From positions 32,001-96,000 of IMG/VR virus record IMGVR_UViG_3300037067_015211: 64,000 nucleotides of DNA; one strand, given 5' to 3'. A model generated the notes under the pieces. The model saw nothing but the letters and a program-made list of their open reading frames with translations, was not told where the DNA came from and did not search any database. The stretch is from a virus. Taxonomy: Duplodnaviria > Caudoviricetes. How positions within the stretch are numbered: the first letter of the stretch is position 1; the number at the start of each line of letters is the position of its first letter. Shown in pieces: positions 17,233 through 60,386 of this stretch. A program made the position numbers and the translations under genes.

Positions 17233-18883
17233 ATGCCAGAAGAGTTAAAAATTGAAATTGGCCAAACAAAAGAAAAATACATCAAAGAATATATTTACGA
17301 CTACAAAATTGTTGATTGTTATATTGTGGGCAACAAAAAGTTTAGAAGCAAAGAGGATGCAGAACAGCACCTTAATTGGCTAAAAATACAAGAGGGTGAA
17401 AAATTTCTACAATCATTGCCGACAACAGAGATAATGGGCAACACATTTTATTTGATTAAAACAGAAAAAATATGGGAAAGGTTTAAAGAGATTAAAAATA
17501 CCACAAAAGAGATTACATTTGACTTTCCTTTCTTGGTGTCGTATTATTATTGTGATATATATGATGGTCCTCCAACACATGAATGGAACTTTATTACGCA
17601 AGATGATGTTAAAAAATTACAGGAGATTTTGAAAAATGGAAGCAACAGCTAGGTTTTTTATCCTTGGCCTTATATTTATTGCCTTGACAATATCTATGGC
17701 GAGTTCATTTAAATTACAAGTATTAGAAAAAGAACGCAATAACCTAAGACAAAAATGCGCCGCTCTTGAGGAAACCAATAGACAATACCGCAATGCATTT
17801 GAAACAGCGTATAAGATAGAACAAATGAAGGGTGGCAATAATTTAATGCTGGATATGGTTAAGGAAGGTCTTGAAAAATGATTAAGATCATCATCAATGG
17901 AAATGTGGCAATGGCTATCGAACCAAGGGAGGGCGGAGTTTATACGGGAGATTCAATCGTTGTTACAAGGACACATTCTGTTGACGAGAATAATGTGGCA
18001 AGGCTAGTAGAGGGGCTTCCAATACATCTTCAAGTCCACGTAGACAAAAAAGAGTATTATGGGCTGTCTTCAGTAGAAAAATTAATTGCACTCGTAAAAG
18101 ACATATTTTTAAACTATAACATTGATGAATGCGATGGGGAAAAAATAACAAACATCATCAAAGAAATCGAAGAAGCGCAAAATACCAAGGACAAACAATT
18201 TGCACAATACAAAAAGTTTGTTGAGGCGTTATGCGAAGAAGATGATGACCTAGACTTCTGGGCCTCCGAATATAAGCATGCTTTGGAAAAATTGTCCAAG
18301 ATAGAAGAATTGGAAAAGCGGTGTGAAGAACTTGAAAAACATATTCTTGCAAAATATCTCGATGATAAAAAAACACAAGATGAAAAGTAACATCGAACTA
18401 AAACTAAAAAAATATTGCAAACGAAAAAGAAAAGTTGACGTAAATGTTGCGGACGAACTGCATCAAATCATTTGCTCCAATTGGGATAAGATTGCAAAAT
18501 GTTTATGTGATAAAAGATTAAATGACGCGCTTGCCATCATTATGTTGCCGATCATGAACATTGCCGCCAAAAAATCCAAGATAGAGTCTGGTAAATTCAA
18601 TGATTTATATCAGAAAAACCATAGGATGGTACGGCAAGAGGCAAGGAAGATGTTGAGTAATTATTTGCCCCTGTCTCAGACAAGGTACATGAAATGCTAT
18701 GGCAATATCTGTCCAATATGTAAATCATCGTTTGTTTACACCTTTCAGGAGCAGATAGAAAACATTAAGCTGGCCGGTGGAGTGCTAGAAGTTCATTATG
18801 AGTGTGATGAGTGTGGGGCGGAATGGGCAGAGGCATACAAGCTAAGTGGCTATCATATTAAAGAACAAGAGCAATCTCGTTAG
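17233..18883 (+). CDS. Hypothetical proteins (17233-17652, 17636-17881 TM+coiled coil, 17878-18390, ~18380-18883 with C-terminal Zn ribbon)
   Basis: Overlapping operon-like arrangement. Confidence 0.6.
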
Positions 18884-19367
18884 AAGTTGCCGTCATTGCT
18901 TCATTACTTATTGGGAACAGTTGCAAAGAGATTTGTTTATCTAGTGGTAATGGTTCATCTCGATATAGTACACCAATTTTGCCGTCCTTGTTTGCTGATT
19001 TTAGACCATCTACCATTACGCCAGACAACGGACGATATATTGACACATATTGGTATTCTTGAGCAAAAAGTTCATCTTTGATTGGACTTTCAAAAGTGGC
19101 CTCTTCCCAAGCAAAAATTTCCTTGCCGCCACAGGATTTTCTAAGGTTGAAAACAGGGTGATCTATTTGTTTCCAGTTGTCCTTAACGGCTTCGCCAATC
19201 GTGTTGTATTCAGTATGGCCAATTGGCTTGCCATCTTCCGTAAAATATGTGTATTGTATTTTGTTTGTGCTGGCGGAGTTATGGATAATACCACCACCAT
19301 ATCGGCCTTTCCCGACAACAATACCACGTTTTAATTGAGCCATTATTTTATATGTTCTATAGATCAT
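18858..19367 (-). CDS. Hypothetical protein with MIYRTYK..A leader
   Basis: Lone - strand ORF with AGGA RBS; N-terminus resembles the leader family at 34.6-43.9 kb. Confidence 0.6.
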   Translation of the reverse strand: MIYRTYKIMAQLKRGIVVGKGRYGGGIIHNSASTNKIQYTYFTEDGKPIGHTEYNTIGEAVKDNWKQIDHPVFNLRKSCGGKEIFAWEEATFESPIKDELFAQEYQYVSIYRPLSGVMVDGLKSANKDGKIGVLYRDEPLPLDKQISLQLFPISNEAMTATSNEIALVL

Positions 19368-23480: not shown

Positions 23481-24441
23481 ATGCTAGTAGATATTTCTCA
23501 AATTAAAGACCCCGACATTTTGGGCGAGATGTTTAGAGAGTTGTTTTTCGAACAGGATGAAAAAAACCTTGGTTGTTACAATAATTTTAAATTGAAACCA
23601 GATGTTAAAAATCTAGGCAAACAAAAAACAAAACAAGGTGAAGGAGTCGTGGCAAATCTTTTGCTCTCTGATAATACCAACGTAGAAATGTTCTACACTT
23701 GGGAAGGTGGAGATGGTTTTTTGATGTTCACTACAAATGAGTTTGTAGTTGGAAATTATGACTGTAAGAAAACATATGGATGGATGTTTTTATGAAAATC
23801 AGAACAGGATTTGTATCGAACAGTTCTACGGCGTCATTTATTTTGCGCAGAGACGCTTTAACCTCCGCATTACTCAATAGATTAAAAGAATTGGGCGATG
23901 ATTGGTATATAAAGTATGAGGACAGTTATACCTATGGCGGGACCATTATGGACAATGATGGAATAGTTAGAATTTTTAAGGAACATGGGCTAAAAGAATA
24001 CAGGGATTTTTATGTATCTGACCACTGCGAGTCAATTCCTGTGACGCAAGAAAATTTGGAAGAGTTTTTTGCGCCCGAGATAAACGCCAATAGAGATAAA
24101 GACTTCGACAAAGAAAAACTCTGCGAAGAGCATGCAATGAAGATGTTTGAAATGATTTTATTTTCTTAGGAATAATGATAAAAAAGACATGCTATATTAT
24201 TAATCGATGTGAAAAAAATATTTACGTAGATATAACGTCAAGTCTTTTGCGTCTACAAGAACAACATATGGTTGGCTTAGCAGACGAGGATAATGGTTTG
24301 ATGGGGATGGCCCCTGTGTACAGTGATTTGAACAAAGCATTTGAGAAATACGGCAAAGATATTAAGTGGACTACTGTGGTGATTGATGTGCCTGAGACAA
24401 AGCATCCCAAGAAGAAGAAAACCAACAAGAAAAGATTGTGA
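23481..24441 (+). CDS. Hypothetical proteins (23481-23795; 23792-24169 with MKIRTGFVSNSS N-terminus; 24175-24441)
   Basis: MKIRxGFVSNSSS is a recurrent phage N-terminal motif; a paralog lies at 31298-31591. Confidence 0.7.
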
Positions 24442-30708: not shown

Positions 30709-31301
30709 TATTTTCCTTTCAAAATTTCGTCCATGTCATCATGCAAATAATTATAAACCATATCCCAATTTTTCACCCTGACAAGATTGTTGCCGTTTAC
30801 GCTCTGATTAAACGGCATGTCCCATACAAAACATTTGATGCCGTTGTTGGCGTAGTCCTTACACGTCTCGGGATGATCCTCTACGGCATATACGCATCCA
30901 AGGGCTTTGGCCACCTTGGCTTTCTCGGAACTATGTACGAACAAAATGTCCCCAAAAGCCAAATCCCAGTTACTAAGCCATGCAATAGTCTGGGCAGACG
31001 TATATCTGGGGCGACCTGTAATATAAGTAACTTCGGATGTGTAGCTTATTTTTTGTAGAAATTGTTGCACATCTTTTTCTGGATAAGGCCAGTACCAACC
31101 ATTTTCTTCGGTAAAGACTTCAAAGGCTTTTTTTAGCTGGGCGGCAGTGATTTGAATATTGGGGCTGGATATGTAATCGTAATGAGTAATGTCTTCCGGT
31201 TTGTTCTGCAAATTAAATTGCTCGTTGCAAAACGGAATAAAGGTATCGTTAAATCTAGCTACGGGACCATCGATGTCTATGGCTATTCGCATTGTTTTCA
31301 C
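30708..31301 (-). CDS. HAD-family 5'(3')-deoxyribonucleotidase-like protein
   Basis: IAIDIDG, ITGR, T..WL, K, VEDH, PFN. Confidence 0.85.
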   Translation of the reverse strand: MKTMRIAIDIDGPVARFNDTFIPFCNEQFNLQNKPEDITHYDYISSPNIQITAAQLKKAFEVFTEENGWYWPYPEKDVQQFLQKISYTSEVTYITGRPRYTSAQTIAWLSNWDLAFGDILFVHSSEKAKVAKALGCVYAVEDHPETCKDYANNGIKCFVWDMPFNQSVNGNNLVRVKNWDMVYNYLHDDMDEILKGK

Positions 31302-31872
31302 CCCATTCTTACCGAAAATACAGCATCTTCATTTTTTTTGATTAGCTCTTTCCACTTATCCAAAGCTTCTTCTTTTTTGTTGTCATACTCGTAATCTTCG
31401 TCGCGCCCAATTACCTCTCCATAATATTTTAAAATTTTTCCCAAAAACTTTTCCTCACCCGTCAACTCATTAATAATTTCTTGTTCTCGTTCAGTCATCT
31501 GGGAAAGAGCGGTTTCGTGGTTTTCTTTCGTGGTGGCGATAATGAAAGATGAAGAACTTGAATTGCTTACGAACCCCATTCTGATTTTCATTGAAACTCC
31601 TTCCTCAAAACTTCTAAAACTTTTTTACCGTGAATTGAAATATATTTTGCCAATTCTTCTGCGCAATCATAGCAAAGTTGCATGGTTTCTTTATTGTATT
31701 CGCCATCTATCAAATACCAATAGGATAACTTTCCGTCTGCCTGACCACAACCACCCCATACAAACGTTTCATCATTAGGGGTTTTAGACTCTTTGCCACA
31801 TAGATCACAAACATATTTGGTGCAAACTTCTTTGCTCACGACCACTTCTTTTATAGTTTCATATTTTTTCAC
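31298..31872 (-). CDS. MKIRMGFVSNSSSSSF-family protein (31298-31591) and Zn-ribbon protein (31588-31872)
   Basis: N-terminal motif; CDLC...CYDC. Confidence 0.7.
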
Positions 31873-31874
31873 GC

Positions 31875-32903
31875 CTAATCTCCCACATCAAACATCGGAC
31901 ATCTGCGTCCATTACTCAATAATTTCTGACGCCATTGTACGAGTCTATCCGAAAGCCAAATATCTGTCAAGAAATTCTCGCATTTTAAAACATCCATTCC
32001 AACCGCCCATTCTTTTTCCCCCTCACAGAAAGAACAGGGAAAGAATTCCCCCTTCCAGTTAATGTAGGCCGAAAATAGTCCAGATTCACATGGTTCGATC
32101 ATAGTGAGAAATTGTTCATATTGACCATGTTTTAATATCCACCGCTCAAACTTAGTTGACGAGCAGGAGTCAAACCCTATCTTGTCGGTAAACACATCGT
32201 TCAGGACGGCCTCAAATTTATCCTGTCTGACCACATGATATCCCACTCCCCTACCTTTAGGCTTTAGGCCAAGCAACACAATAGCATTCAGCTTTTCCAA
32301 CCTCTTATCTGTCTTGGCGTCTCGAAAGACCTCTCGTACAAATTCCTCTGTTTCTTCAGCCAGAAGTAGATGGATATTTGTCTGCTTTACCCCCAGATCG
32401 GTAAAAGTTTTTACCGTATTATATCCAGTATCCTTATCATTCGGATATACGCTAACCGCCAGACCGCCAATATATTTGGCTACCTTCTCGGCCATTTCTG
32501 GCTCCAAATCCTTGCCAGTCAAAGTAAAATTAGGCACTATTCCATTATCTCTTGTGTATTGGAGGATTTGGACAAACTGTCTGTTTGTTTTGACCCCAGT
32601 AATGCCTAGAGCGACCTGTGTGACAGTCTTGGGCATTTTGTATATAATATCCTTATATACGCCCAAAGTCATTACATCGGCCCTCTTGTAGTCCGCATTG
32701 CCCTTGTAGCAGTGGGGGCAATTATTTGGGCAATATCCAGCGGCAATCTCGATATCTAGGATTTCGGGTCCGTATGGGGAATAAACGGGATCTTCGTCTT
32801 CCGTTCTGCCCCATCTAGCAAAAGCCCCAGACATTTTGTGGAAAATGTAGTTGTAATCACTTGACCGCAAAATCTTTAGCCCATCTTTTTCGGTAATTTC
32901 CAT
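31875..32903 (-). CDS. Radical SAM protein with SPASM/twitch-like C-terminus
   Basis: CPNNCPHCYK; CESG...YINWKGEFFPCSFC...CP. Start moved to ATG 32903 behind a GGAG RBS. Confidence 0.88.
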   Translation of the reverse strand: MEITEKDGLKILRSSDYNYIFHKMSGAFARWGRTEDEDPVYSPYGPEILDIEIAAGYCPNNCPHCYKGNADYKRADVMTLGVYKDIIYKMPKTVTQVALGITGVKTNRQFVQILQYTRDNGIVPNFTLTGKDLEPEMAEKVAKYIGGLAVSVYPNDKDTGYNTVKTFTDLGVKQTNIHLLLAEETEEFVREVFRDAKTDKRLEKLNAIVLLGLKPKGRGVGYHVVRQDKFEAVLNDVFTDKIGFDSCSSTKFERWILKHGQYEQFLTMIEPCESGLFSAYINWKGEFFPCSFCEGEKEWAVGMDVLKCENFLTDIWLSDRLVQWRQKLLSNGRRCPMFDVGD

Positions 32904-32980
32904 GATAAACTCTCCTTCTATGCCTATACTGTATGCATAAACGGAGAAAAAGCAAGCGATATTTTTAAAAATTTTTGCTC

Positions 32981-33090
32981 TTGACAAACGGGAGTTTATG
33001 TATAGACTACAAATAGTTTGAAGGGAGATAGACGGAGAAAGCCAATAATTTAAAAAAACATCTTGACAAGCATATAAATATGTATATGCT
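32981..33090 (+). promoter_or_regulatory. Two tandem sigma70-type promoters (32981-33008, 33063-33090), both with N16 spacers
   Basis: TTGACA-N16-TAGACT and TTGACA-N16-TATGCT. Confidence 0.75.
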
Positions 33091-34622: not shown

Positions 34623-37600
34623 CTATTTGTTTTTTGTTAATTCATTGTATTTTTTCATTAGCAATTCTTTGTCCGCGCCTTTAACGTCAAATGTAAACTT
34701 ATAAATCCACTTTGCATTGCCAGACTTAATCACCATATTTTGAAGTACATTTATCTGTTCTGGCAACAAACCTTTAATTGCATCAAAAAAATTACCGCTT
34801 TTAAAAGTCTTAAACAACTTATTATAATCCACATCATAACCTCTTTCAGTGGGTAAAATACCCCTATACTTTTTCATTATTTTCTTAACATCCGGACTTA
34901 ACTCATCATAATAAGAATAAGGAGTTTTAGCAGAATACTTTTTATCTAGCACATCTTTAATCCACCTAGATTCACCCTTTTCAAACTTAGTAAAAATTGA
35001 TCCGGTATTGTGTTCAATATCATTGATTCTATCGATAATATACATTAGCTTTTTATGATCTGTTACAGAAGTATTTTTAAGGTCAATCAAATACTGAGTA
35101 ATAGCTGCCCATCTAGGTCCACCATATTGATAAGCCCAAGGAAGTTCATTAAATACCCTATGTGCCAATTCAAGGGGAATATAATCTCTTTCGCCATTCA
35201 AAATATGATCCGCTTGCTCTTTCGAAATATTTAACTTCTTTGCCAACTCATCTGCATTATTAATACCAGTTCTATTGCCCACATATCCAAAATACATATG
35301 CTCATCATATACCGCCTTGGTAAGATTCTTCACATATTCGTCTTTAACCTCTTCCAAAATCTGATAAGCCACTTGTTTATCTTCATCGTCTAACTGATCC
35401 ATCACAGTAGATAGAGCATAAAAATCATATACTTGTGATGGCTGTAAAGCTAGTCTTTTACGCCATGTATTGTATATCATATTTGCTGACACTTCCCATG
35501 TTTGTGTGGGTTCATAATATTTCTTTGCATCTTCTGGCTTCATGGACTCCGGAAAATCCATTTGTCGCATACCCGGATCCAACTCCAACTCTTCCACATC
35601 GCTAAATTCTTCGTATTCGCTTTTATCCGTTAGACTGTTGCTCTCACGTATTTTTCCCCTAACGAAATCTTCGAATCCTTGGTCATGAATTCCGTATGTC
35701 ATATCGCCCCAGACAAATATAAAATCACCGCAGGCATTCTCGTATCTTCTCAAATCAATCCTACCAAGTGGATGTTCTATTTCTTTATCGCCTTCTCTTA
35801 CCAAATACGCGACCATCCCGCCTCTGGCTATTTTGCTAAACACATATTGTTTCTCGTCCCCATGCATAAATCCAGCCGCTCCGTAGTTTTTTAACTCCTC
35901 GGGCCTCAATGTAAGGCAGGATGTCCATCCCCGGTCCGTGCTCATCCCAGCAATATCTTCCGGTTTATGCGTGAATACGATAAAATGCGGCTGTTGCGAT
36001 TTAATACCACCCTGTAAGCGATCTACAAAAATGGCTAGTAATTCAGGTTGGTCCTTTAGAAGCTTCCCTATGCCTATTTCTCGGCCTGTACGGGCATTTT
36101 GAGCGAGTCCTTGCCGATAATCAACAATTTGGTAACCGTTCCTGAGCAAATGAGATTCCAAGTTCCAAGGCACTTGAATTTTGTCTGCCTTTGGGGTGTA
36201 TGGAAAATATGTCCGCTCTTGCTGGAAGAGCAGCCCCCAAGTAAGTGATTTTGGTCTTTTCTTGGCATATTCTTCCGCCGCTTTTAACTCTTCTTCAGAA
36301 AGTTTGGATTGCTTCTGCCATGTGGTGTAGATAGATGCGAATTTTTTATTTTTTAACTCCTCATATTTTTTCATCAACAATTTTTTATTAGCTCCATTTA
36401 CACCTTCGGCAAAACGGTAAATCCAATGTTCATTGCCAGACCTAATTATTGCATCTTGTAATTTGGATATATTGACTCCCTTAATATCCTTGGCAACCTT
36501 ATAAATTAAAGGCCCATAGAAAAAAAGGTTTCCTTCCTCATCGTCGTTTGCGGTTTTCGCGGTTAGCCTATTTTCTACTATTTTTAGAGCATCTCTTTCG
36601 TCCTTAGTGTATTGACTTACTTCTTTTTTATCACTTTGTCCTTCAATCCTGCCAAAATTATCCAAAAAATATTGTTCACTTGAACGCCATAAATCATTAT
36701 TGCTTACAATCTCCAGCCAAGAATAAGTATTAAGCTTAGTTCCCATAACCTCTAAATTATTATCCTCGATCCACTTCCTTACGAACGGCATATACTCACT
36801 GTTTGGTCTACTATCGGACTTCCCATATACTTGCCAGACTTCATTGCCCCTTACATCAATCGTTACATGAGGCTCATTGGTAGAATCTCTTAAAGAATAT
36901 ATCTCTTTCTCGCCGCTCTCTACGTCCCGCCAATAATTTTCTCCCCCCACACAATGCCCCATCTTGTTGCCTTCTTCAACAAGATCGACATTACTGTGGA
37001 TATTTACCATCTTCATAGACTGGCCATCTACGGTAATTGTTTGGTCTCCTAGATGACCTACGCGGTATTCCTCTACTTTTTCTACGCTGGAACCGCCCGT
37101 ACCAATACGATGCCATTCATAAGAAGAATTAACCGCCTCATCATAAGACATATTTGAAACTTCTGCATATCCAACATCTATATACCAGTCATAAACTTCA
37201 TTTAAAGATTGCCGATTGCTCGAAATGTATCCACCCTTTACCCAGCCAACAAACTTTTCCATTATCGTTTGCATGCCACCTCTATCTGTTGGTGGATATT
37301 GTTTAACTATTCCTTCTATTCTAATCAAATATTTGCTATCATCTGCATTCAACTGTGACTTGTCTTCCTCTATCTCTAACTTTTTGTTGGGAATCAAAAT
37401 TTCCCAAGTCTTCTTGGAATCCTTTTGGGACAGGCCCATTATCTTAGTATAGTTGTTAATAATGAAGTTTGGGTCTTGCTTAATGGCCTTTATGGGTACC
37501 ACGACATTAGCCGGTAGATTAAACTCCTGTCTAACTAGGTCCGCTATCTCCTTACTTTTTACCTGCTCACCCTGCATGGAGTCTTGTAGCCTATCTACTA

Positions 37601-39116
37601 AACCAGCTAATAATTTCTTTGCAAATATTTGCCGTTGCCATGTGGTATGTATCAGCGATCCAGTTCTTTTTTGATATTCATTATCCATCAAAGCAACCGG
37701 TCCCTTATGATATTTTTCCCTACGAGTATTCTCATTCTGTAACTTCTCTTTCCAAAATGAAGTAACAGGATACTCGCCAAAAAATATCGGATCAACAGCC
37801 CCCATATCCCTACCTGACCACGTTGTTCTTACGCGATACGTTCCATCTGGATTAACGGCAAGAATTTGGGCACCCTCTTCAGTGGCATATCCATCACCGA
37901 TAATAATGGCTAAATCAGGGTTATTTTTAGATGTGGCAAATTGTTTGACCTTTTCTTGTCCTTCTCGTTTTTTTTCATAATTGGAATAAATCAATGACGC
38001 TTGTTTTTTGTTTTTCAATTCATTGTATTTTTTCTTTAATAATTTTTTGCCTGCCCCTTTAACATCTTGGGCAAATCTATAAATCCACTCTGTATTACCA
38101 GACTTAATCACAACATCTTGTAATCTGGGTATATCCGCGCCTTTAATATCTTTGGCAAACATATAGATCCACTCTGCTTTGCCAGTTTTAATTATTGCTT
38201 TCTGCAATTTAGATATATCGGCCCCTTTTACATTTTTTGCAAAATAAAAAATAAATTCTTCGTCTTTAGATTTAATTATTTGATCTTGTAATTTAATAAT
38301 TTGTTCTTTAGGTATAAAATCTCCGTATTTAGAAATATAATCAAATGCAAATATTCCTTCTGGGAATATATCATGATATCCCTTTTCGACATCTTCTAAA
38401 GCAAAATCTTGTAAATCCAATATAGTAGCAGTTATTTTATTGCTTTCAGCTAATTTGCTATTAACAAACTCTACAAAATTGTTGTCTTGAATACCGTAGC
38501 ATTCATTACTTCCAACAAAAATAAAATTGCCATTATTATCTCCATATCTCCTAATAGCTACTCTAGCCAATGGGGCTTCAATATTCTTATCGCTCTCTTT
38601 AATCAAATAGGCTACTAACCCACCCCTTTCTATTTTGTTAAATACTTGTTCATGGTGCTCACCGCCCCTTAAATCTACACAAGATTTCCAGTTTCTATCG
38701 GTAGATGATCCAGCTATATCCTCTGGCTTATGGCTAAATACTACCAATAAGTTTTCATTATATTGCTTAGCCTGTCCTTGTAGCCTATCATCAAATAGCT
38801 TTTTAAGGTCTTGTCTATTTTCCCTATTTAAAATCTTGCCTATCCCTATTGGTTGATTTTTGACCTTCTTCTTCGCCAATCCCTGTCGATAATCTACTAC
38901 CTCGAATCCTATAGAATCCAAAAATGCCTGAATCTCTTGAGGCACTTCTAGGGGCTGTTGTGTGGCTGTTTTATAAGGAAAATATGTCCGCTCTTGTTGA
39001 AAAAGCGGTCCCCATGTTAATTTTTTGCTACGCTTCTTGGCCGCTTCTTCAGCCATAGCAAGTTCTTCTTGGGATAGCTTGGCCTTTACTGTTCTTTTCC
39101 AAGTATCGTATATCAT
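34623..39116 (-). CDS. 1497-aa modular protein (putative virion-cargo polyprotein) with duplicated domain, ~28-aa helical repeats and PcfJ-like domain
   Basis: aa ~1-250 repeated from aa ~928 (LTWG.LFQQERTYFPY, HKPEDIAG.STDR.W.SC); repeats FAKDIKGADISKLQDAIIKSG; PcfJ-like EGNKMGHCVG..Y......IYSLRD..N.PHVTI. Confidence 0.8.
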   Translation of the reverse strand: MIYDTWKRTVKAKLSQEELAMAEEAAKKRSKKLTWGPLFQQERTYFPYKTATQQPLEVPQEIQAFLDSIGFEVVDYRQGLAKKKVKNQPIGIGKILNRENRQDLKKLFDDRLQGQAKQYNENLLVVFSHKPEDIAGSSTDRNWKSCVDLRGGEHHEQVFNKIERGGLVAYLIKESDKNIEAPLARVAIRRYGDNNGNFIFVGSNECYGIQDNNFVEFVNSKLAESNKITATILDLQDFALEDVEKGYHDIFPEGIFAFDYISKYGDFIPKEQIIKLQDQIIKSKDEEFIFYFAKNVKGADISKLQKAIIKTGKAEWIYMFAKDIKGADIPRLQDVVIKSGNTEWIYRFAQDVKGAGKKLLKKKYNELKNKKQASLIYSNYEKKREGQEKVKQFATSKNNPDLAIIIGDGYATEEGAQILAVNPDGTYRVRTTWSGRDMGAVDPIFFGEYPVTSFWKEKLQNENTRREKYHKGPVALMDNEYQKRTGSLIHTTWQRQIFAKKLLAGLVDRLQDSMQGEQVKSKEIADLVRQEFNLPANVVVPIKAIKQDPNFIINNYTKIMGLSQKDSKKTWEILIPNKKLEIEEDKSQLNADDSKYLIRIEGIVKQYPPTDRGGMQTIMEKFVGWVKGGYISSNRQSLNEVYDWYIDVGYAEVSNMSYDEAVNSSYEWHRIGTGGSSVEKVEEYRVGHLGDQTITVDGQSMKMVNIHSNVDLVEEGNKMGHCVGGENYWRDVESGEKEIYSLRDSTNEPHVTIDVRGNEVWQVYGKSDSRPNSEYMPFVRKWIEDNNLEVMGTKLNTYSWLEIVSNNDLWRSSEQYFLDNFGRIEGQSDKKEVSQYTKDERDALKIVENRLTAKTANDDEEGNLFFYGPLIYKVAKDIKGVNISKLQDAIIRSGNEHWIYRFAEGVNGANKKLLMKKYEELKNKKFASIYTTWQKQSKLSEEELKAAEEYAKKRPKSLTWGLLFQQERTYFPYTPKADKIQVPWNLESHLLRNGYQIVDYRQGLAQNARTGREIGIGKLLKDQPELLAIFVDRLQGGIKSQQPHFIVFTHKPEDIAGMSTDRGWTSCLTLRPEELKNYGAAGFMHGDEKQYVFSKIARGGMVAYLVREGDKEIEHPLGRIDLRRYENACGDFIFVWGDMTYGIHDQGFEDFVRGKIRESNSLTDKSEYEEFSDVEELELDPGMRQMDFPESMKPEDAKKYYEPTQTWEVSANMIYNTWRKRLALQPSQVYDFYALSTVMDQLDDEDKQVAYQILEEVKDEYVKNLTKAVYDEHMYFGYVGNRTGINNADELAKKLNISKEQADHILNGERDYIPLELAHRVFNELPWAYQYGGPRWAAITQYLIDLKNTSVTDHKKLMYIIDRINDIEHNTGSIFTKFEKGESRWIKDVLDKKYSAKTPYSYYDELSPDVKKIMKKYRGILPTERGYDVDYNKLFKTFKSGNFFDAIKGLLPEQINVLQNMVIKSGNAKWIYKFTFDVKGADKELLMKKYNELTKNK

Positions 39117-39451
39117 GATTTTCGCACCTTCTTCTCTACCGCATTACAAATCTCGTGCGCCTCGTCGTATGACAAACCCATGTGTTTCATAAGCGTTCTC
39201 TCTATCATCTCGTGCAGGATAATCGGAAAATGCTGAGACGAATCAATGTTACCATCTATCCAAATTTCTTTGTCGGGAATAAAGGAGTATCTCTCTCCGT
39301 TACCACCCTCTACGAAATCCATTTCGTACTTTGTCTTTACGGCATCCCCGTCAACAATTTTTATCACAACATCAGTGTCTACGGGAAGGCGATTTTCTTT
39401 CGCTATTTCCTTGATTTTATTTATCATCCAAGTCTTGAAAATCTTGTCCAT
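39113..39451 (-). CDS. Zincin-like metal-binding protein
   Basis: EIWID...ILHEMIER.LM...SYDEAH. Confidence 0.6.
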   Translation of the reverse strand: MDKIFKTWMINKIKEIAKENRLPVDTDVVIKIVDGDAVKTKYEMDFVEGGNGERYSFIPDKEIWIDGNIDSSQHFPIILHEMIERTLMKHMGLSYDEAHEICNAVEKKVRKS

Positions 39452-39596
39452 ATTGATATAATAGTCTATAGAAAAACTATTATATTTTTATGAGATTAAA
39501 AGATATTGGGAAAGATAAAGTACCAGCAAGAGAAGATGACGATCCATTCTTATGGTTCGTCCAAAATTTTAGACGAGAATTTCCAGTAAAGGACAA

Positions 39597-39743
39597 TGAT
39601 GACAAATCAAGAATGCCAAAAGCTAATAAAAGAACTTAGACGGCTAAAGAAATCACTAGATACGCCAGAAAAATCACTGAAATTCTTGGTAGATGCAGGG
39701 ATTTGCGCTAAAACAGGTAAGCTGTCTAAGAATTACCGCTAAA
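39597..39743 (+). CDS. Small hypothetical protein (not in ORF track)
   Basis: AAGGA RBS; MMTNQECQKLIKELRRLKKSLDTPEKSLKFLVDAGICAKTGKLSKNYR. Confidence 0.45.
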
Positions 39744-40364
39744 TCTAAACAAAACCATATTTACATTATGTGTCTCGGGCAACACGCCTACCAACTCTAC
39801 TCCAAATTTTTGTAGCCTATCCAGATTGGGCTGTCCACCGCGCATAAGCAAATTATATGAATCTGGCGTCATGGAAGCCGCTAAATACTTGTATCCTTTA
39901 CCCTTTAACTGTTGCAAATAATTGATAAGCAACTTGGTTACAACGATTCCCCTCTTTACATCCGCCATACTCTTAAGCACATTAAAATTGGCCACGTAAT
40001 GCACTTTACCCTTTCTGGCAGACTTTAGGACATCCTTGTACAATGATTTGATGTTATCGGTCGTATAAAGCTGTATGTCCTTAAATTCGTCATAATCGGG
40101 TGCATTGTCCGTATTGATGAAATCATAGCCGCCTAGATAGCCCACGGGCTTGTTCTCGTCCTTGGCTATGTTAAACACAGCACCCGGCTGTTCCGTGTCG
40201 TCTATAAGGTCGTCCGCTGGCTGGGGACCATAATAGGTAAGGCCATCGCCAAATCCTTGCTCTTCTAACTCGGCTAGTTGATTGGCGGTCTGCTCGTCCA
40301 GTTTGTCTTTAACTTCCTGAACAATGATTTTCGCCAGCCGTCTGAGGTACGTTTGGTAAATCAT
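39726..40364 (-). CDS. GNAT-like acetyltransferase with leader MIYQTYLRRLA
   Basis: IAKDENKPVGY, YVANFNV, RGIVVTKLL..L..KGYKYL, SYNL match GNAT topology. Confidence 0.6.
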   Translation of the reverse strand: MIYQTYLRRLAKIIVQEVKDKLDEQTANQLAELEEQGFGDGLTYYGPQPADDLIDDTEQPGAVFNIAKDENKPVGYLGGYDFINTDNAPDYDEFKDIQLYTTDNIKSLYKDVLKSARKGKVHYVANFNVLKSMADVKRGIVVTKLLINYLQQLKGKGYKYLAASMTPDSYNLLMRGGQPNLDRLQKFGVELVGVLPETHNVNMVLFRFSGNS

Positions 40365-40753
40365 TTACCATCTTCTTTTATTTTTATCGATTTATCAATA
40401 AAATATTTTTTATTAGTAATGTGTGTGCCCCCAAAACTAATTCCCAATAAAATTCCCATTCTTGTTTTCCACTCAGTTAGATACCCAACAAAATCATCAT
40501 ATTTATCGCCAATTGGAGTTGGAATTACATCCATACTTCCAACCGTAGAATAAAAGACTTTCTCTGTAACCTCTTGCATAGTATCGCTAAACCTATTAAT
40601 ATAGGCATCCCACTTACATCTAGCGGGGCTTGATGGGTCACACTTATCCATCGACCTAAACTTTTCTTTTATATCTCTAGCGTTCCAGTCTTCAAAGTTA
40701 AAATATTTTTTTTGTGCTTGTTTTTTTTCTTTCCAATTTTTAAATATTTCCAT
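40361..40753 (-). CDS. Hypothetical protein with leader MEIFKNWKEKKQA
   Basis: GAGG RBS; flanked by a 20-bp direct repeat. Confidence 0.7.
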   Translation of the reverse strand: MEIFKNWKEKKQAQKKYFNFEDWNARDIKEKFRSMDKCDPSSPARCKWDAYINRFSDTMQEVTEKVFYSTVGSMDVIPTPIGDKYDDFVGYLTEWKTRMGILLGISFGGTHITNKKYFIDKSIKIKEDGK

Positions 40754-40958
40754 GTTACCTCACTCCTAAGGTACGTTTGGTAGATCATCTTTACTCTTCT
40801 TAGTAGTGGCCAAATAACGCTTGCTCTTCATTTGGTCAGCAAATTTATTCGCCTGTCGCTCTTCCTTAGTTCTAGTCTTCCACTTACCATGTTCGAATTT
40901 TTGGCTTCCATTCCGCTGAGTCCTATTAGCCATTACATCTCTCCTATAATAGTTGTTT

Positions 40959-41828
40959 TCAGCCTTTTATTCTAATTGATATTTCTACTTCTTTTTTGCA
41001 CTTAGGACAATCAATCAGTTCCTTATCTGTAATCGTCTTGCCATGTAGACCAATCTTTTGAGCACAAAATGGACATCTTATAATGATCTGCCACTTTTCC
41101 TTCTCATTAGATTTAGGCATCGGAGGACACATGTTTTTAAATACATCACTAAAATCAAATGGATTTGACATCATTCGACTTTCAAAATAGTTTTTACTTT
41201 ATCGTAGTCAATGACTGTAAATGTTACTCCGGCAAATAAATTTGTATGCTCATTCCAATGGTCTTCATCATCGTCAGAACAATTAACAATGTATGGACAA
41301 AAGATTCTGTACAACTCTCGTCCATAAACATAATCTATCGCATTATCAAAATGGCCTTGAAATATATCTACAAACTCTCTATATTTCCGATCAAGAAGTT
41401 TTTCTAAAAAACAAATTATTTTCTTTTTTATTTCATCTTTTTTCTTTGTAGTTATGTCTTTGTAATTTTCTAAAAAAGAAAAATCGATATTGCTTATCTT
41501 AAAGTCGTCCGGGAACAACAATATGATTTGTTCGCAGTCACTCATCCTAAAATCTCTCTATCCTGTTCCCGCTCTCAATATCAAGGGCAACTCCATATCT
41601 ACCACCTTCAAATTCTTGCTCTTCTACGGGCCATACATAGTAGGCAAAGCAGAAGTGGCAATACAAATCATAATCATGAATTTCGAATAATTGATGCAAA
41701 TGTCCTGTTTTCATATCAACTACAAGTTTTTTGTCTGTGCCCTCTTTTGCCTTTTCTTTCCATTGACTCCACTTCTTATAGTGCCATTGAGACATCACAT
41801 CGAGAAGTTCAATTGTGGCGTTAGTCAT
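40959..41828 (-). CDS. Hypothetical proteins (40959-41174 Zn ribbon, 41171-41545, 41547-41828)
   Basis: Abutting - strand ORFs. Confidence 0.6.
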
Positions 41829-41906
41829 TGGTGTTGTCCTTTAATTATGTTCATATGTTCCGTTCCGTCAACAAATATTTGCAAGTGCCTACGTTTAGCA
41901 ACAAAA

Positions 41907-41979
41907 TTGCCCGACCAAGACTCGAACTTGGAACACAAGATTCAAAATCTTGCATGTTAGCCAATTACACCATCGGGCA
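41907..41979 (-). tRNA. tRNA-Gln(UUG)
   Basis: Reverse complement TGCCCGA...CAAGA-TT TTG AA-TCTTG...TTCGAGT...TCGGGCA; no encoded CCA. Confidence 0.9.
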
Positions 41980-41983
41980 AAAA

Positions 41984-42055
41984 AGCCCCGAGTGGGAATC
42001 GAACCCACAGTCTCCGATTTACAAAACCGGTGCTTCACCGTTAAGCTATCGAGGC
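41984..42055 (-). tRNA. tRNA-Thr(UGU)
   Basis: Reverse complement GCCTCGA...CCGGT-TT TGT AA-ATCGG...GTGGG-TTCGATT-CCCAC-TCGGGGC-T. Confidence 0.9.
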
Positions 42056-42219
42056 GTATTCTTCATCTTCTCGAAACACACTGCACAAAACATATTGTGC
42101 ATGCGCAAATCAATTTCACTCGCCTTAAATGATTTACCACATTCCTGACAGGTGACATAGATTTTCTTCTTGGTCGCCTTGTCCCCGTATACAAGTTTCA
42201 GTTCCGTGTTGTTGTCCAT
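42046..42219 (-). CDS. Small Zn-ribbon protein between tRNAs (not in ORF track)
   Basis: GAGG RBS; MDNNTELK...CQECGK...CAVCFEK. Confidence 0.55.
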   Translation of the reverse strand: MDNNTELKLVYGDKATKKKIYVTCQECGKSFKASEIDLRMHNMFCAVCFEKMKNTPR

Positions 42220-42259
42220 TTCTGTTCCTCATCATTATGTTGTTGTCACCAATATGATC

Positions 42260-42505
42260 CTACTTCTCTATAAATATTTTAGTCAAATCAATTTGCATGT
42301 CAAGCGCAATTGCTATTTTTAAAAGTTGTTTAATAGTGATTTTGTTGGGGAAGTCACCTAATAGGCGGCAAATGAATTTGTGGCTAACGTTAGCTTTCTT
42401 TGCCAGCTTTCTTTTGGACAAATGTAGTTCATCCATTCTGTCTGATATAGGTTCAGAAATATCAAGGATAAGGTCATAGTATTTTTTGAGAAAGTCTTCT
42501 TTCAT
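42260..42505 (-). CDS. XRE-like HTH protein
   Basis: LSKRKLAKKANVS...ITIKQLLKIAIALDM; paralog of 28177. Confidence 0.7.
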   Translation of the reverse strand: MKEDFLKKYYDLILDISEPISDRMDELHLSKRKLAKKANVSHKFICRLLGDFPNKITIKQLLKIAIALDMQIDLTKIFIEK

Positions 42506-42536
42506 TTTTATATCCTCGCTTTTAGCGTTTGTTTTT

Positions 42537-42609
42537 CTCCGAGGGGAGAATTCGAATCTCCAGTCTACTGATTAACAGTCAGTTGCATAACCAATTATGC
42601 TACCTCGGA
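42537..42609 (-). tRNA. tRNA-Asn(GUU)
   Basis: Reverse complement TCCGAGG...ACTGA-CT GTT AA-TCAGT...TTCGAAT...CCTCGGA-G. Confidence 0.9.
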
Positions 42610-42618
42610 TCTTCAAAA

Positions 42619-42700
42619 TGGATGGTGGTGGATTTGAACCACCGAAGACGGAGCCACCAGATTTACAGTCTGGCCCCTTTGACCACTCGGGCAACCATCC
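42619..42700 (-). tRNA. tRNA-Tyr(GUA)
   Basis: Reverse complement GGATGGT...CCAGA-CT GTA AA-TCTGG, long variable arm, TTCAAAT. Confidence 0.92.
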
Positions 42701-42710
42701 AAACAAATTT

Positions 42711-42788
42711 TGGTAGGACGAGAAGGATTCTAACCTTCGATCCCCGGATTAAAAATCCGGTGCTTTGAAACAACTAAGCTATCGTCCT
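42711..42788 (-). tRNA. tRNA-Lys(UUU), atypical elbow
   Basis: Reverse complement AGGACGA...CCGGA-TT TTT AA-TCCGG...GAAGG-TTAGAAT-CCTTC-TCGTCCT-ACCA. Confidence 0.85.
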
Positions 42789-42909
42789 ATAAAAACGGAT
42801 AGCAAACCAACAATCTCATTTAATCGTGTCCGCAACGAGCCTTGTCCATACACCTATGGGCACTTTCAAGAGCCGAAATGTCAGCTTGCCATCAAGCGGA
42901 CTAACATCT

Positions 42910-42937
42910 AGTATATGCGTGATTTTCAGTTTGTCAA
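42910..42937 (-). promoter_or_regulatory. Promoter of tRNA cluster, TTGACA-N16-TATACT
   Basis: Immediately downstream of a terminator, upstream of tRNA-Lys. Confidence 0.8.
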
Positions 42938-42939
42938 AT

Positions 42940-42967
42940 AAAAAAGCCCGACTTTTTAAGCCGGGCT
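42940..42967 (-). terminator. Rho-independent terminator
   Basis: Reverse complement AGCCCGGCTT-aa-AAAGTCGGGCT followed by a T-tract. Confidence 0.8.
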
Positions 42968-42993
42968 AATATATTTTTTATGATTATTCTACG

Positions 42994-43473
42994 TTATTTC
43001 TTAGCCGCCCCACGCCATACTTGGTCAACATTGGTATTTACCATGCCAGCTTCTTTTTCCTCGTCTTCCTTGCCCTCTATGGCCTCTTCTGGGGCATTTT
43101 CACCACCCTTGGCCTTCCCATCGCCCACAAGGGCCATAATGCTGTCCTGTAGCTCTGTAATCTCATCTGCGGACATTTCTTCGGTCTTTTTCATAAGCTG
43201 TTCAGCAAACGGCAACCATTTATAATAGTTTTTGTTCTCATCGATATGAACATTGGCAATCTTTTCGGCTTCCTTGGGGTCATCCGTATGCTCCATTTCG
43301 ATTTCTATGCCAACTTCAAGGTCTGAGTCGGCTTCAACTTCAGGAATCTCTTCCTTTACTTCTTCGGCCTTTTCTTCTTCGCTATCTTCGGGCTTGCCAC
43401 TATCCTTGTCGCCCTGCCATTGATTCTTTTCCTGCGCGACTCTATTTCTCTTCCAGTTTTCGAATGTTTGCAT
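42994..43473 (-). CDS. DUF5661-like acidic protein with leader MQTFENWKRNRVA
   Basis: LEVGIEIEMEHTDDP..A.KIA..H..E...YY..L. Confidence 0.75.
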   Translation of the reverse strand: MQTFENWKRNRVAQEKNQWQGDKDSGKPEDSEEEKAEEVKEEIPEVEADSDLEVGIEIEMEHTDDPKEAEKIANVHIDENKNYYKWLPFAEQLMKKTEEMSADEITELQDSIMALVGDGKAKGGENAPEEAIEGKEDEEKEAGMVNTNVDQVWRGAAKK

Positions 43474-43500
43474 GATACATTTCCTTTTTAAAGTTGTTTA

Positions 43501-43944
43501 TTACTCTCCACCAAAATATCCCGGGTCTTCCACAACATCACCAATATGATCGTCCAAATATTGACGCGCACTTTCAATGAACTCTCCGACCGTAACACCA
43601 CATACTTTACAATCAGTTGTACCATCTGTGTAAGGATGTCTGCATGGAGTAAAATTGGCCTGTGCATCAGCCAATGCTTTGTTTTCCTGTTCCGCAGTCC
43701 AATCTTCATCGAAAGCTTTTTTCTCAATCTCTTTAGTAAAATCCTTCTGCACCATTGCCGGACTCCAACCAAATGTTGAAGCGGTGCCCGGGAAGTCAAG
43801 ATCAGTTTGCACCAACATATCTTGCCCTGTGTCCAAATCAGTTACAGTATATGTTCCAAAATTGCTATAGCCAAGTTCTATCTGTCCAGCCTTAGTCTTT
43901 TTAGATGCAAGTTTCTTTTGCCGCCAATTTTCGTATGTACCCAT
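43501..43944 (-). CDS. Hypothetical protein with leader MGTYENWRQKKLA
   Basis: AAGGA RBS; VQTD.DFPG.A..FGW...C.H..TDGT.DC..CG. Confidence 0.75.
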   Translation of the reverse strand: MGTYENWRQKKLASKKTKAGQIELGYSNFGTYTVTDLDTGQDMLVQTDLDFPGTASTFGWSPAMVQKDFTKEIEKKAFDEDWTAEQENKALADAQANFTPCRHPYTDGTTDCKVCGVTVGEFIESARQYLDDHIGDVVEDPGYFGGE

Positions 43945-43998
43945 TGAATAATCCTTTAAAATTAATGCTATCTCAATTATAGCAAATCATTGCACTTT

Positions 43999-59132: not shown

Positions 59133-60386
59133 AAATTTTTGAGGCAAGGAAACCGCCACCCTTGTGGTGGCGGAGGAATTGCCTCCCTCCTATCTAAAAC
59201 TACTATATGTCAAAAACCGAGTACATTCAACTCTGGCGTTTTGTGTCAACCGTTTTCCTGTCTTCAAATCGTGCAAACTCAACCTGTTTTTTAAACTACC
59301 TCCAACATAACATAAACCAAATTTCTCATTCTTAACCAGACTACCTTTCTTGAAACCCAAACTCATTGTGCCACCATATCGTTTTCTTTCGCTGCCAGTG
59401 TCGGGTTGAAAACGATGCAATTGTCTTCTGTGAAATCGTATCGGAACCATCCTTTTGATTTTTGTATTGTCGGGTTTTGTATGACCTCCGATTAACCAAT
59501 TTGCCAACACCCAAGAATCAACATTATGAGCGTCAAAAGATTCCAACATCTTATTTTTTGTTTTCTTCAACCCAAGATTATTTCTCATTTCAAACGTTTC
59601 GTATCCTTGTCTTGTTTCGAGATTGCCGAGTTTCTTCAATTCCGAGTAAAACCATTCTTTCCCAACCTCCAATGGGCTGAATGATTTGTTCCACTTCTTT
59701 TGACCCGTTTTTGTCTTCGCCTTGATGTTCTCAACAACATAATCGGTGATGGGAAAAACTCTTTTAAGACGATTCACGATTCTTAATTTCAATTGCCATC
59801 TCGCTTTTGTCGATGGTGCAAGATAACATCTTGCTCTATTTTTTCTGTTTTGACGACATGGTGTCTTCCGTTGTCGTCTACTTCTTCGAGCGTTTCGTTT
59901 GCTTTCAATAGCATCCTTAACCCAAGTCACAGCATCAGAAAGCACGTTCAGATAAGTATGACTTTCTGACTTGACTGTAAATGCTTCTCGTTTACTACCG
60001 GGGTCAATGCCAACCACGATATCCTGTTTCTTAGTGTCGCTTGGTTCTTGGTTCAATCGAACACAAAATATTCCGTTACTCCAAAACGGCGTTGCTTTGT
60101 TTTTCTTAATCCATTGTGCCACTCGCCAATTTGTGGTTGGCATAAGTTGTTGATTTTTAAAATCGACAACCGGAACAAACATCTATACATTCCTTAAAAA
60201 TGGCGTTTATTTTCTATAAGACGGAAAACGCCGTCAAAACCTTGTTGTATACATCCCTTCGACACTGACTCACAGAGGGAAAGAGAACTAGGGAAGCATC
60301 CTCAATGTCTTTTGGACTACCACGTCCAGTGAGTTCAGTTACAAACTGTCTAGTCAATCAGTCGCCCTTAAAAATCGGTGGTTGGT
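59133..60386 (-). mobile_element. IsrB-encoding IS200/IS605-superfamily element
   Basis: Upstream omegaRNA-like region, isrB, and terminal hairpin CCGCCACC-ACAA-GGGTGGCGG. Confidence 0.8.
59190..60182 (-). CDS. isrB: IsrB (PLMP domain, split RuvC, bridge helix; no HNH), RNA-guided nickase
   Basis: QLMPT, GIDPGSK, RRSRRQRK, VVENI, H.VDS, RRQLH; 330 aa with no HNH insertion. Confidence 0.88.
   Translation of the reverse strand: MFVPVVDFKNQQLMPTTNWRVAQWIKKNKATPFWSNGIFCVRLNQEPSDTKKQDIVVGIDPGSKREAFTVKSESHTYLNVLSDAVTWVKDAIESKRNARRSRRQRKTPCRQNRKNRARCYLAPSTKARWQLKLRIVNRLKRVFPITDYVVENIKAKTKTGQKKWNKSFSPLEVGKEWFYSELKKLGNLETRQGYETFEMRNNLGLKKTKNKMLESFDAHNVDSWVLANWLIGGHTKPDNTKIKRMVPIRFHRRQLHRFQPDTGSERKRYGGTMSLGFKKGSLVKNEKFGLCYVGGSLKNRLSLHDLKTGKRLTQNARVECTRFLTYSSFR

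Follow-up and report, generated by a model that had tools for sequence, protein, structure and literature searches.

A shared aromatic N-terminal leader on unrelated proteins of an uncultured huge phage: a possible address for the prohead interior

Phage proteins that are injected with the DNA act first in infection, and outside phage T4 we know of no sequence rule for spotting them. A short terminal peptide can take unrelated cargo into an HK97-fold shell in the encapsulins, where the peptide is usually C-terminal and binds the shell protein directly, with no protease step. In T4, the unrelated proteins IPI-III and Alt share a short N-terminal leader, the capsid-targeting sequence (CTS), and form an anti-defence cargo that is injected with the DNA (PMC3012670; 10.1101/2021.01.19.427310). 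The prohead protease gp245 of the phiKZ-like phage SPN3US removes N-terminal propeptides, some of 20-24 residues, from several head proteins, and its A-x-E cut motif is also present in portal and scaffold-like proteins (PMC10052503). Polyvalent proteins are large proteins of phages and conjugative elements that combine 2-15 unrelated domains and for which delivery together with the DNA, and processing into parts, has been predicted (Iyer et al. 2017; PMC5512222). Here we examine a 64,000-nucleotide stretch of phage DNA (hereafter the window), which is genome positions 32001-96000 of the 212,568-bp IMG/VR record IMGVR_UViG_3300037067_015211 (38% G+C, estimated to be about 95% complete), and a short peptide, typified by I-Y-x-T-W and here called the tag, with which many unrelated proteins of this phage begin.

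The original prediction, made from the window alone, listed seven open reading frames (ORFs) with such a start, and all seven read as it gave them (window positions 39116, 39451, 40364, 40753, 43473, 43944 and 19367, all on the minus strand). Over the whole genome, 17 clear and about four weaker genes have the same start. The clear cases follow the consensus M-x(0-5)-[I/T/C]-[Y/F]-x-[T/S/N/D]-[W/Y], mostly followed by K or R, and those outside the window are at genome positions 1902, 5340, 7212, 8603, 97966, 99799, 111750, 183599, 185212 and 204577; the weaker ones are at 101805, 206711, 208687 and 211782. When the core [F/Y]-x-[T/N/S/D/E]-[W/Y]-[K/R/Q/L/M/V] was scored in the first seven residues, 15 of 303 called genes carried it, against 33 matches at 59,859 internal positions, and five of these 33 are themselves tags, located at module junctions or behind mis-called starts. 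The genome-wide scan that had been proposed as a check therefore finds the N-terminal enrichment, which is about 13-fold (odds ratio 12.9, Fisher p=3.7e-11). The core also starts 2 of 1,059 out-of-frame shadow ORFs of the same genome and none of 202 genes from twelve loci of other huge phages. An all-against-all BLASTP comparison of the tagged proteins found just three paralogous module families and about 13 singletons; with this and the enrichment, the leader is real and is carried by unrelated proteins, as had been claimed.

We conclude that the peptide is very probably a functional, lineage-specific N-terminal address leader of about 20 residues. Its first part is a short amphipathic helix in which two aromatic residues are spaced three apart (I/T-Y/F-x-T/S/N-W/Y) and basic residues come next; its second part, found in most copies, is a basic-basic-x-Ala/Gly-Ser/Gln element. 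The i/i+3 spacing of the aromatics equals that of the T4 capsid-targeting decapeptide, a parallel first drawn in the original prediction and in agreement with the literature, and the basic-x-Ala-type element that it placed after the tag is present. A Sec, Tat or lipoprotein signal peptide was considered and rejected because the leaders have no hydrophobic core; they are hydrophilic after the aromatic pair and then run into charged linkers.

The tags differ freely in their synonymous codons, and the DNA upstream of them is unconserved except for ribosome-binding sites, so the conservation is at the level of the protein. I, Y, N, T and K have A/T-rich codons, as would suit a translation-level effect in which A/T-rich early codons or the nascent peptide boost initiation; yet such an effect, besides being at odds with the synonymous variation, explains neither the invariant TGG codon for tryptophan nor the fixed aromatic spacing, and five internal copies of the tag have no start signals. 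We regard that explanation as very improbable, and the tag is not a DNA- or translation-level signal. A degenerate DNA pattern for M-I-Y-x-T-W-basic-basic gave 16 matches in IMG/VR, all due to chance and none at an ORF start; the exact tag is thus confined to this lineage. A near-identity search of cultured phages with the region gave no match, scans of IMG/VR with one protein at a time (a tagged protein, family D, which is described below, and the terminase) found no relatives, and the terminase is only 22-26% identical to those of actinophages. The comparison with one metagenomic relative, L028, on contig Ga0265297_10000595, covers 21 kb of its 104 kb, together with single orthologues.

Homologues of the tagged proteins show where the leader ends. 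The 147-aa tagged protein (window 43501..43944, minus strand) has its leader in residues 1-21 (43882-43944), which read M-G-T-Y-E-N-W and then R-Q-K-K-L-A-S. Twelve homologues were found in a protein database; ten begin at the conserved domain, which is residue 22 of the tagged protein, and one more distant homologue has a different N-terminal extension. The close relative P0030, 73% identical, keeps M-G-T-Y-E-N-W exactly and also the pattern of basic residues followed by L-A-S/T. An AlphaFold2 model built on the alignment of these 12 homologues (mean pLDDT 83.5) predicts a helix at residues 4-14, with a confidence below that of the body, then a short linker and the first strand of the domain from residue 21. 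The body is a small conserved domain containing Cys and His, with an invariant C-terminal E-D-P-G-Y-F-G, and a Foldseek search of this confident model against the PDB gave no match. Acidic or proline-rich linkers of low complexity come after the tag in several further bearers.

The same is seen in a second cargo family, family D, which forms a module of the 353-aa protein at genome 111750-112811 and is also encoded at window 34623-35480 (minus strand). The family is recognised by the signature Y-D-F-Y ... W-x-x-x-Y-G-G ... D-I-E-H-N-T; no Pfam family covers the domain and PHROG gave a weak match only. Its relative in L028, 71% identical, keeps I-Y-x-T-W. Distant members from 40 metagenome loci (L028-L067) have other N-terminal extensions or are found inside giants of 2,000-3,300 aa, and a homologue in a Vibrio siphophage has no N-terminal extension at all. 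One member, in L061, starts with M-N-W-Y-K-K-I-F-R-V-A-Q, so that the same cargo family carries a different leader in another lineage. Family D is widespread in metagenome contigs and is often the N-terminal part of the 2,000-3,300-aa huge-phage proteins. The tag is therefore an appended leader and not part of the domain behind it.

Copies of the tag also mark the boundaries of modules inside long proteins. A 1497-aa protein (window 34623..39116, minus strand) consists of five modules of three families, plus repeats, and carries the tag at residue 1 and at four internal junctions, with internal tags at residues 375, 488, 929 and 1213; a PcfJ-like domain occupies residues 695-775. On the minus strand the junctions are at window 37977..38009 (residues 370-380, K-K-Q-A-S then L-I-Y-S-N-Y), 37638..37670 (residues 483-493, K-R-T-G-S then L-I-H-T-T-W), 36318..36347 (residues 924-933, K-K-F-A-S then I-Y-T-T-W) and 35463..35492 (residues 1209-1218, V-S-A-N then M-I-Y-N-T-W). 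The internal tags follow the C-terminal helix of the preceding module, which ends in K-K-x-A/G-S. The module that begins at the fourth junction is 84% identical to the N-terminus of a separate gene (genome 99799-101808), whose 669-aa product has two modules and an internal tag at residue 389. Runs of a repeat of about 33 residues (I-I-K-S-G-N-x-x-W-I-Y-x-F-A-x-D-V-K-G-A-D) close each module of the 1497-aa protein, at residues ~270-365, 870-925 and 1440-1497.

In a relative of the 1497-aa protein, P0006 (1115 aa, 57-59% identical), the homologue of our third module comes first, so that its M-I-F-K-T-W is truly N-terminal, followed by a run of repeats, much longer than ours, and then by our first module, joined through a junction of like form. 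Modules have therefore been shuffled, fused and split as units that run from tag to junction. This rearrangement between the phage and its relative, with modules occurring both fused and free, would be expected if the tag were left over from cassette evolution, as a conserved edge of modules that move about, with no function today. A relic does not sit well, however, with a tag that is also carried by about 13 unrelated singletons, that is kept inside paralogous modules at 37-42% identity and fully conserved in the 73%-identical orthologue, and that is missing from homologues outside the lineage; nor is there any conservation at the DNA level that could drive recombination. We consider such an origin improbable as the explanation for the tag as it stands.

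The second part of the leader is distributed in a way that points towards the head. The proteome has 28 copies of the pattern [K/R][K/R]x[A/G][S/Q], where its composition would lead one to expect 11.5. Nine or ten of these copies lie within a few residues after a tag and four directly before internal tags, and five are in proteins of the head module: the protease-scaffold protein has two in its scaffold part, the portal has one (at residue 21), and two are in a 659-aa protein whose gene (genome 206711-208690) lies three genes upstream of that of the portal. The portal, the protease and the capsid protein each carry a related R-x-R-T/I-A-E/D/Q close to the N-terminus. This is the distribution that a maturation-protease site might be expected to have, judged from a short motif. 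The original prediction had proposed cleavage after [K/R]-x-A; that motif is not conserved between paralogous modules and the proposal is not supported in this form. A better-defined candidate site is [K/R]-[K/R]-x-[A/G] followed by S or Q, which we put forward as a doubtful assignment from the sequence.

The head genes themselves are of the Bacillus phage G type. They include the major capsid protein (genome 197512-198396; PDB 6wkk gp27, E=1e-22; phrog_2522), the portal (202513-204267; phage G gp14, E=6e-42) and a 1162-aa protease-scaffold protein (198982-202470, equivalent to L004:2982-6470, minus strand) made up of a protease domain, a zinc ribbon and an acidic region. The first ~240 residues of the latter match a head maturation protease family (phrog_18299, E=3e-16) and the protease part is 31% identical to phage G gp19 (E=1.5e-18); the zinc ribbon is at residues 405-429, and beyond the protease part the protein is very acidic and scaffold-like. 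In phage G, the protease gp19 and the genes that follow it are separate, in contrast to the single fusion found here. A tagged 244-aa gene (204577-205311) lies immediately upstream of the portal, and two more tagged genes, of 264 aa (183599-184393) and 138 aa (185212-185628), are about 13-14 kb off, among genes of unknown function between a putative tape-measure gene and the head genes. An exhaustive HMMER search with the 138-aa protein found no homologue except itself.

The position of these last two genes, between the tape-measure and head genes and not among the latter, would also be in keeping with a peptide that docks proteins onto the outside of the particle or onto the neck, tail or fibres. 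Against this, the bearers include PcfJ-like and other enzyme-like modules and show no adhesin or fibre features, and internal processing would better account for the multi-module proteins and for a site-like motif that the scaffold has as well. Docking at such other places on the virion thus seems to us to have a low probability.

Promoter-like elements give a further connection. Of 23 upstream regions in the structural block, five have a T-rich stretch followed by CTATTAT(A/T), as against none of 39 in the early plus-strand block, and CTATTATA is over-represented in intergenic DNA, with 9 of 20 copies in 12% of the genome; the T4 late-promoter-like TATAAATA is part of two copies. This element, at times in slightly altered form, stands upstream of five tagged operons (genome 8603, 71113, 72766, 75501 and 185212), of which 71113 includes the 1497-aa gene, 72766 includes 72361 and 71726, and 75501 includes 74994. 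In the window, on the minus strand, GCTATAAT at 43976..43983 is a promoter-like element of the late type 31 nt upstream of the 147-aa gene, CTATTATA at 40945..40952 is upstream of a 55-aa ORF that leads the operon of the 130-aa and 212-aa genes, and CTATTATA at 39457..39464 ends 6 nt before the ATG of the 112-aa gene, hence upstream of the 1497-aa gene. Near the start of the 112-aa gene (window 39452-39470) this last element is mirrored by another copy of CTATTATA on the opposite strand, 20 nt away; the transcript may be leaderless here, or the two copies may form a pair of divergent promoters. In the tagged cluster, sigma-70-like sites show no enrichment, with 36 sites where 32.8 would be expected. 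This arrangement suggests that the tagged genes are co-regulated with late genes.

Phage G, with its homologous capsid protein, portal and protease, has a leader of its own that is analogous to the tag but differs from it in sequence. In 40 kb around its head genes (L027, 3337-44026), the pattern [K/R]-[I/L]-x(0-2)-K-[K/A] occurs within nine residues of the start in 9 of 60 annotated proteins, against seven internal matches in 10,815 positions. This leader, M-K-R-L-[I/V/M/F]-K-K-[A/S/G], is carried by unrelated proteins, most densely near the genes for portal, protease and capsid. Searched for as DNA, M-K-R-L-hydrophobic-K gave eight matches on the coding strand of phage G and none on the other strand or with the reversed control; seven of the eight are true starts of ORFs that have ribosome-binding sites, and they are spread across the 498-kb genome (among them W01 73330, 207449, 244460, 255160 and 446709). 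We found no mention of this leader in the phage G multi-omics paper or in a 2026 jumbo-phage review. Like the tag described here, it has hydrophobic and basic residues followed by a small one, and its bearers are unrelated; its sequence is different and lacks the aromatic pair.

By analogy, we propose that the address is the interior of the prohead, with removal of the leader or cleavage at the junctions by the scaffold-fused protease, and we put the probability of this reading at roughly 45%. The link to the head is circumstantial and is drawn from the tagged genes on the portal side, the site motif in portal and scaffold, the shared promoter-like element and the leader of phage G. In the proposed mechanism, the basic aromatic helix would dock its protein to the scaffold part of the 1162-aa protein, which is very acidic, during prohead assembly. 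The fused head-maturation protease would then cut at the second element and free the cargo of its leader, and the same cleavage would sever the multi-module proteins at their junctions. The cargo, including PcfJ-like modules, would stay in the head and reach the host with the DNA.

Several points weigh against this proposal. Docking, cleavage, packaging and ejection are all modelled on the T4 CTS, the promoter-like element was defined from few sites, and the second element is short, is absent from the tags of the 112-aa protein and of family D (which has A-L there) and is not conserved between paralogous A modules. The capsid stretch R-Q-R-I-A-Q was rejected as a sure cut site, and need not be one, because it aligns to a conserved segment of the N-arm of phage G gp27. 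The internal tags, kept at such divergence, indicate that the peptide need not be N-terminal, which fits processing and would equally fit a docking helix that works independently of position. Finally, the majority of the tagged genes lie outside the head module, most bearers being encoded amid non-structural genes, and the 169-aa gene (window 18858-19367), unlike the others, stands behind an early-type TTGACA promoter-like site.

These last two observations would also be expected if the tag were an address for another partner or destination in the cell, such as a degron or adaptor site for a host protease, a site for a chaperone or modifying enzyme, or a localisation signal, with no loading into the head. 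The order polar-T-aromatic-basic resembles what we take to be one class of ClpX N-terminal recognition motifs, and the genome already has an N-terminal tag linked to an enzyme: G-F-V-S-N-S-S, with a radical-SAM/SPASM enzyme (window 31875-32987, minus strand; Pfam E=2e-5 and 1.5e-4). This second tag is found in a 97-aa ORF two genes downstream of the enzyme (31298-31591, minus strand; M-K-I-R-M-G-F-V-S-N-S-S-S), and a 129-aa ORF away from it (23780-24169, plus strand) has the same serine-rich start. The enzyme was rejected as a partner of the I-Y-x-T-W genes, which it adjoins, because it has its own serine-rich tag set, unrelated to theirs. A tie to a phage ClpP was also rejected, as the phage encodes none, and no candidate partner enzyme co-clusters with the I-Y-x-T-W genes. 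Against another partner there are, further, the tagged gene beside the portal and the two that lie upstream of the head genes, some 13-14 kb off, as well as the presence of the second element in both portal and scaffold and the clustering of phage G's analogous leader around its head genes. We judge another partner to be rather unlikely, and keep the prohead interior as the preferred destination.

The cargo labels of the original prediction found little backing. GNAT for the 212-aa protein and zincin-like for the 112-aa protein had no Pfam or PHROG support even at E<=1, DUF5661 for the 159-aa protein reached E=2e-4 only, under the cut-off, and domain searches of the tagged proteins matched no peptidase family, zincin-like included. 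The sole firm cargo domain is PcfJ-like (PF14284), found in two tagged proteins at 39.8-43.9 bits against a gathering cut-off of 25; outside this phage, its homologues come fused with ArdC-N and with lytic transglycosylase domains, a combination typical of delivered 'polyvalent' proteins.

The remaining tagged genes of the window are all on the minus strand. The 159-aa protein (42994..43473) starts with M-Q-T-F-E-N-W-K-R-N-R-V-A-Q and continues with an acidic low-complexity stretch; its gene is the second in the operon 43944-42994, which is closed by a terminator at 42945-42967. The 130-aa protein (40361..40753; M-E-I-F-K-N-W-K-E-K-K-Q-A-Q, with the site motif K-K-Q-A-Q) matched no family, and its gene is translationally coupled to that of the 212-aa protein (39726..40364; M-I-Y-Q-T-Y-L-R-R-L-A-K). 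The 112-aa protein (39113..39451) starts with M-D-K-I-F-K-T-W and has no second element; its gene has no visible ribosome-binding site, and the stop of this gene and the start of the one for the 1497-aa protein overlap. The 169-aa protein (18858..19367) starts with M-I-Y-R-T-Y-K-I-M-A-Q. In the middle of the tagged gene cluster are five tRNA genes (Gln, Thr, Asn, Tyr and Lys; window 41906-42788, minus strand), with a strong sigma-70-like site of their own at 42937-42910; the residues that make up the tag include Asn, Tyr, Lys and Thr, all served by this tRNA block.

A broader reading, which we advance tentatively, is that in phages of the phage-G capsid and protease lineage such lineage-specific codes define all the proteins that are loaded into the head and injected, with the scaffold-fused protease cutting at the leader junctions. 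The codes would be I-Y-x-T-W with basic-basic-x-A/G-S/Q here, M-K-R-L-x-K-K in phage G and M-N-W-Y-K elsewhere. If this is true, the effectors that uncultured huge phages inject could be listed directly from their sequences, which would open a route to mine these phages for counter-defence cargo. The code would mark about 20 candidate injected proteins in the present phage, PcfJ-like modules included, and giant multi-module proteins would be pre-packaged bundles that are cut inside the head. As phage G can be cultivated and has an analogous leader, the idea is directly testable.

Among the described systems, polyvalent proteins resemble the 1497-aa protein, with five modules, and the 669-aa protein, with two, in joining unrelated domains in one polypeptide; here, in addition, each module has a common leader, the junctions share a motif, and the processing enzyme would be the head protease. 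The SPN3US propeptides share the A-x-E motif but no common leader sequence, and their protease is T4-gp21-like. The T4 CTS is the closest parallel, with aromatics three apart, a site-like end of the leader and genes scattered beyond the head cluster. The leader described here is basic whereas that of T4 is acidic, and the candidate site is basic-basic-x-A/G followed by S or Q (or is absent), in place of the gp21 motif I/L-x-E. About 20 predicted bearers are found in this phage, against a handful in T4, and they include copies at internal junctions. The head, too, appears to differ from that of T4, with a small capsid protein of the phage G type and a protease that is like gp19 and is fused to the scaffold; a search of the genome for PF03420 (Peptidase_S77) gave no match, and neither did the control of that search. 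The present leader would thus work like the T4 CTS but stand outside that system, with a sequence, site motif, protease and scaffold architecture of its own.

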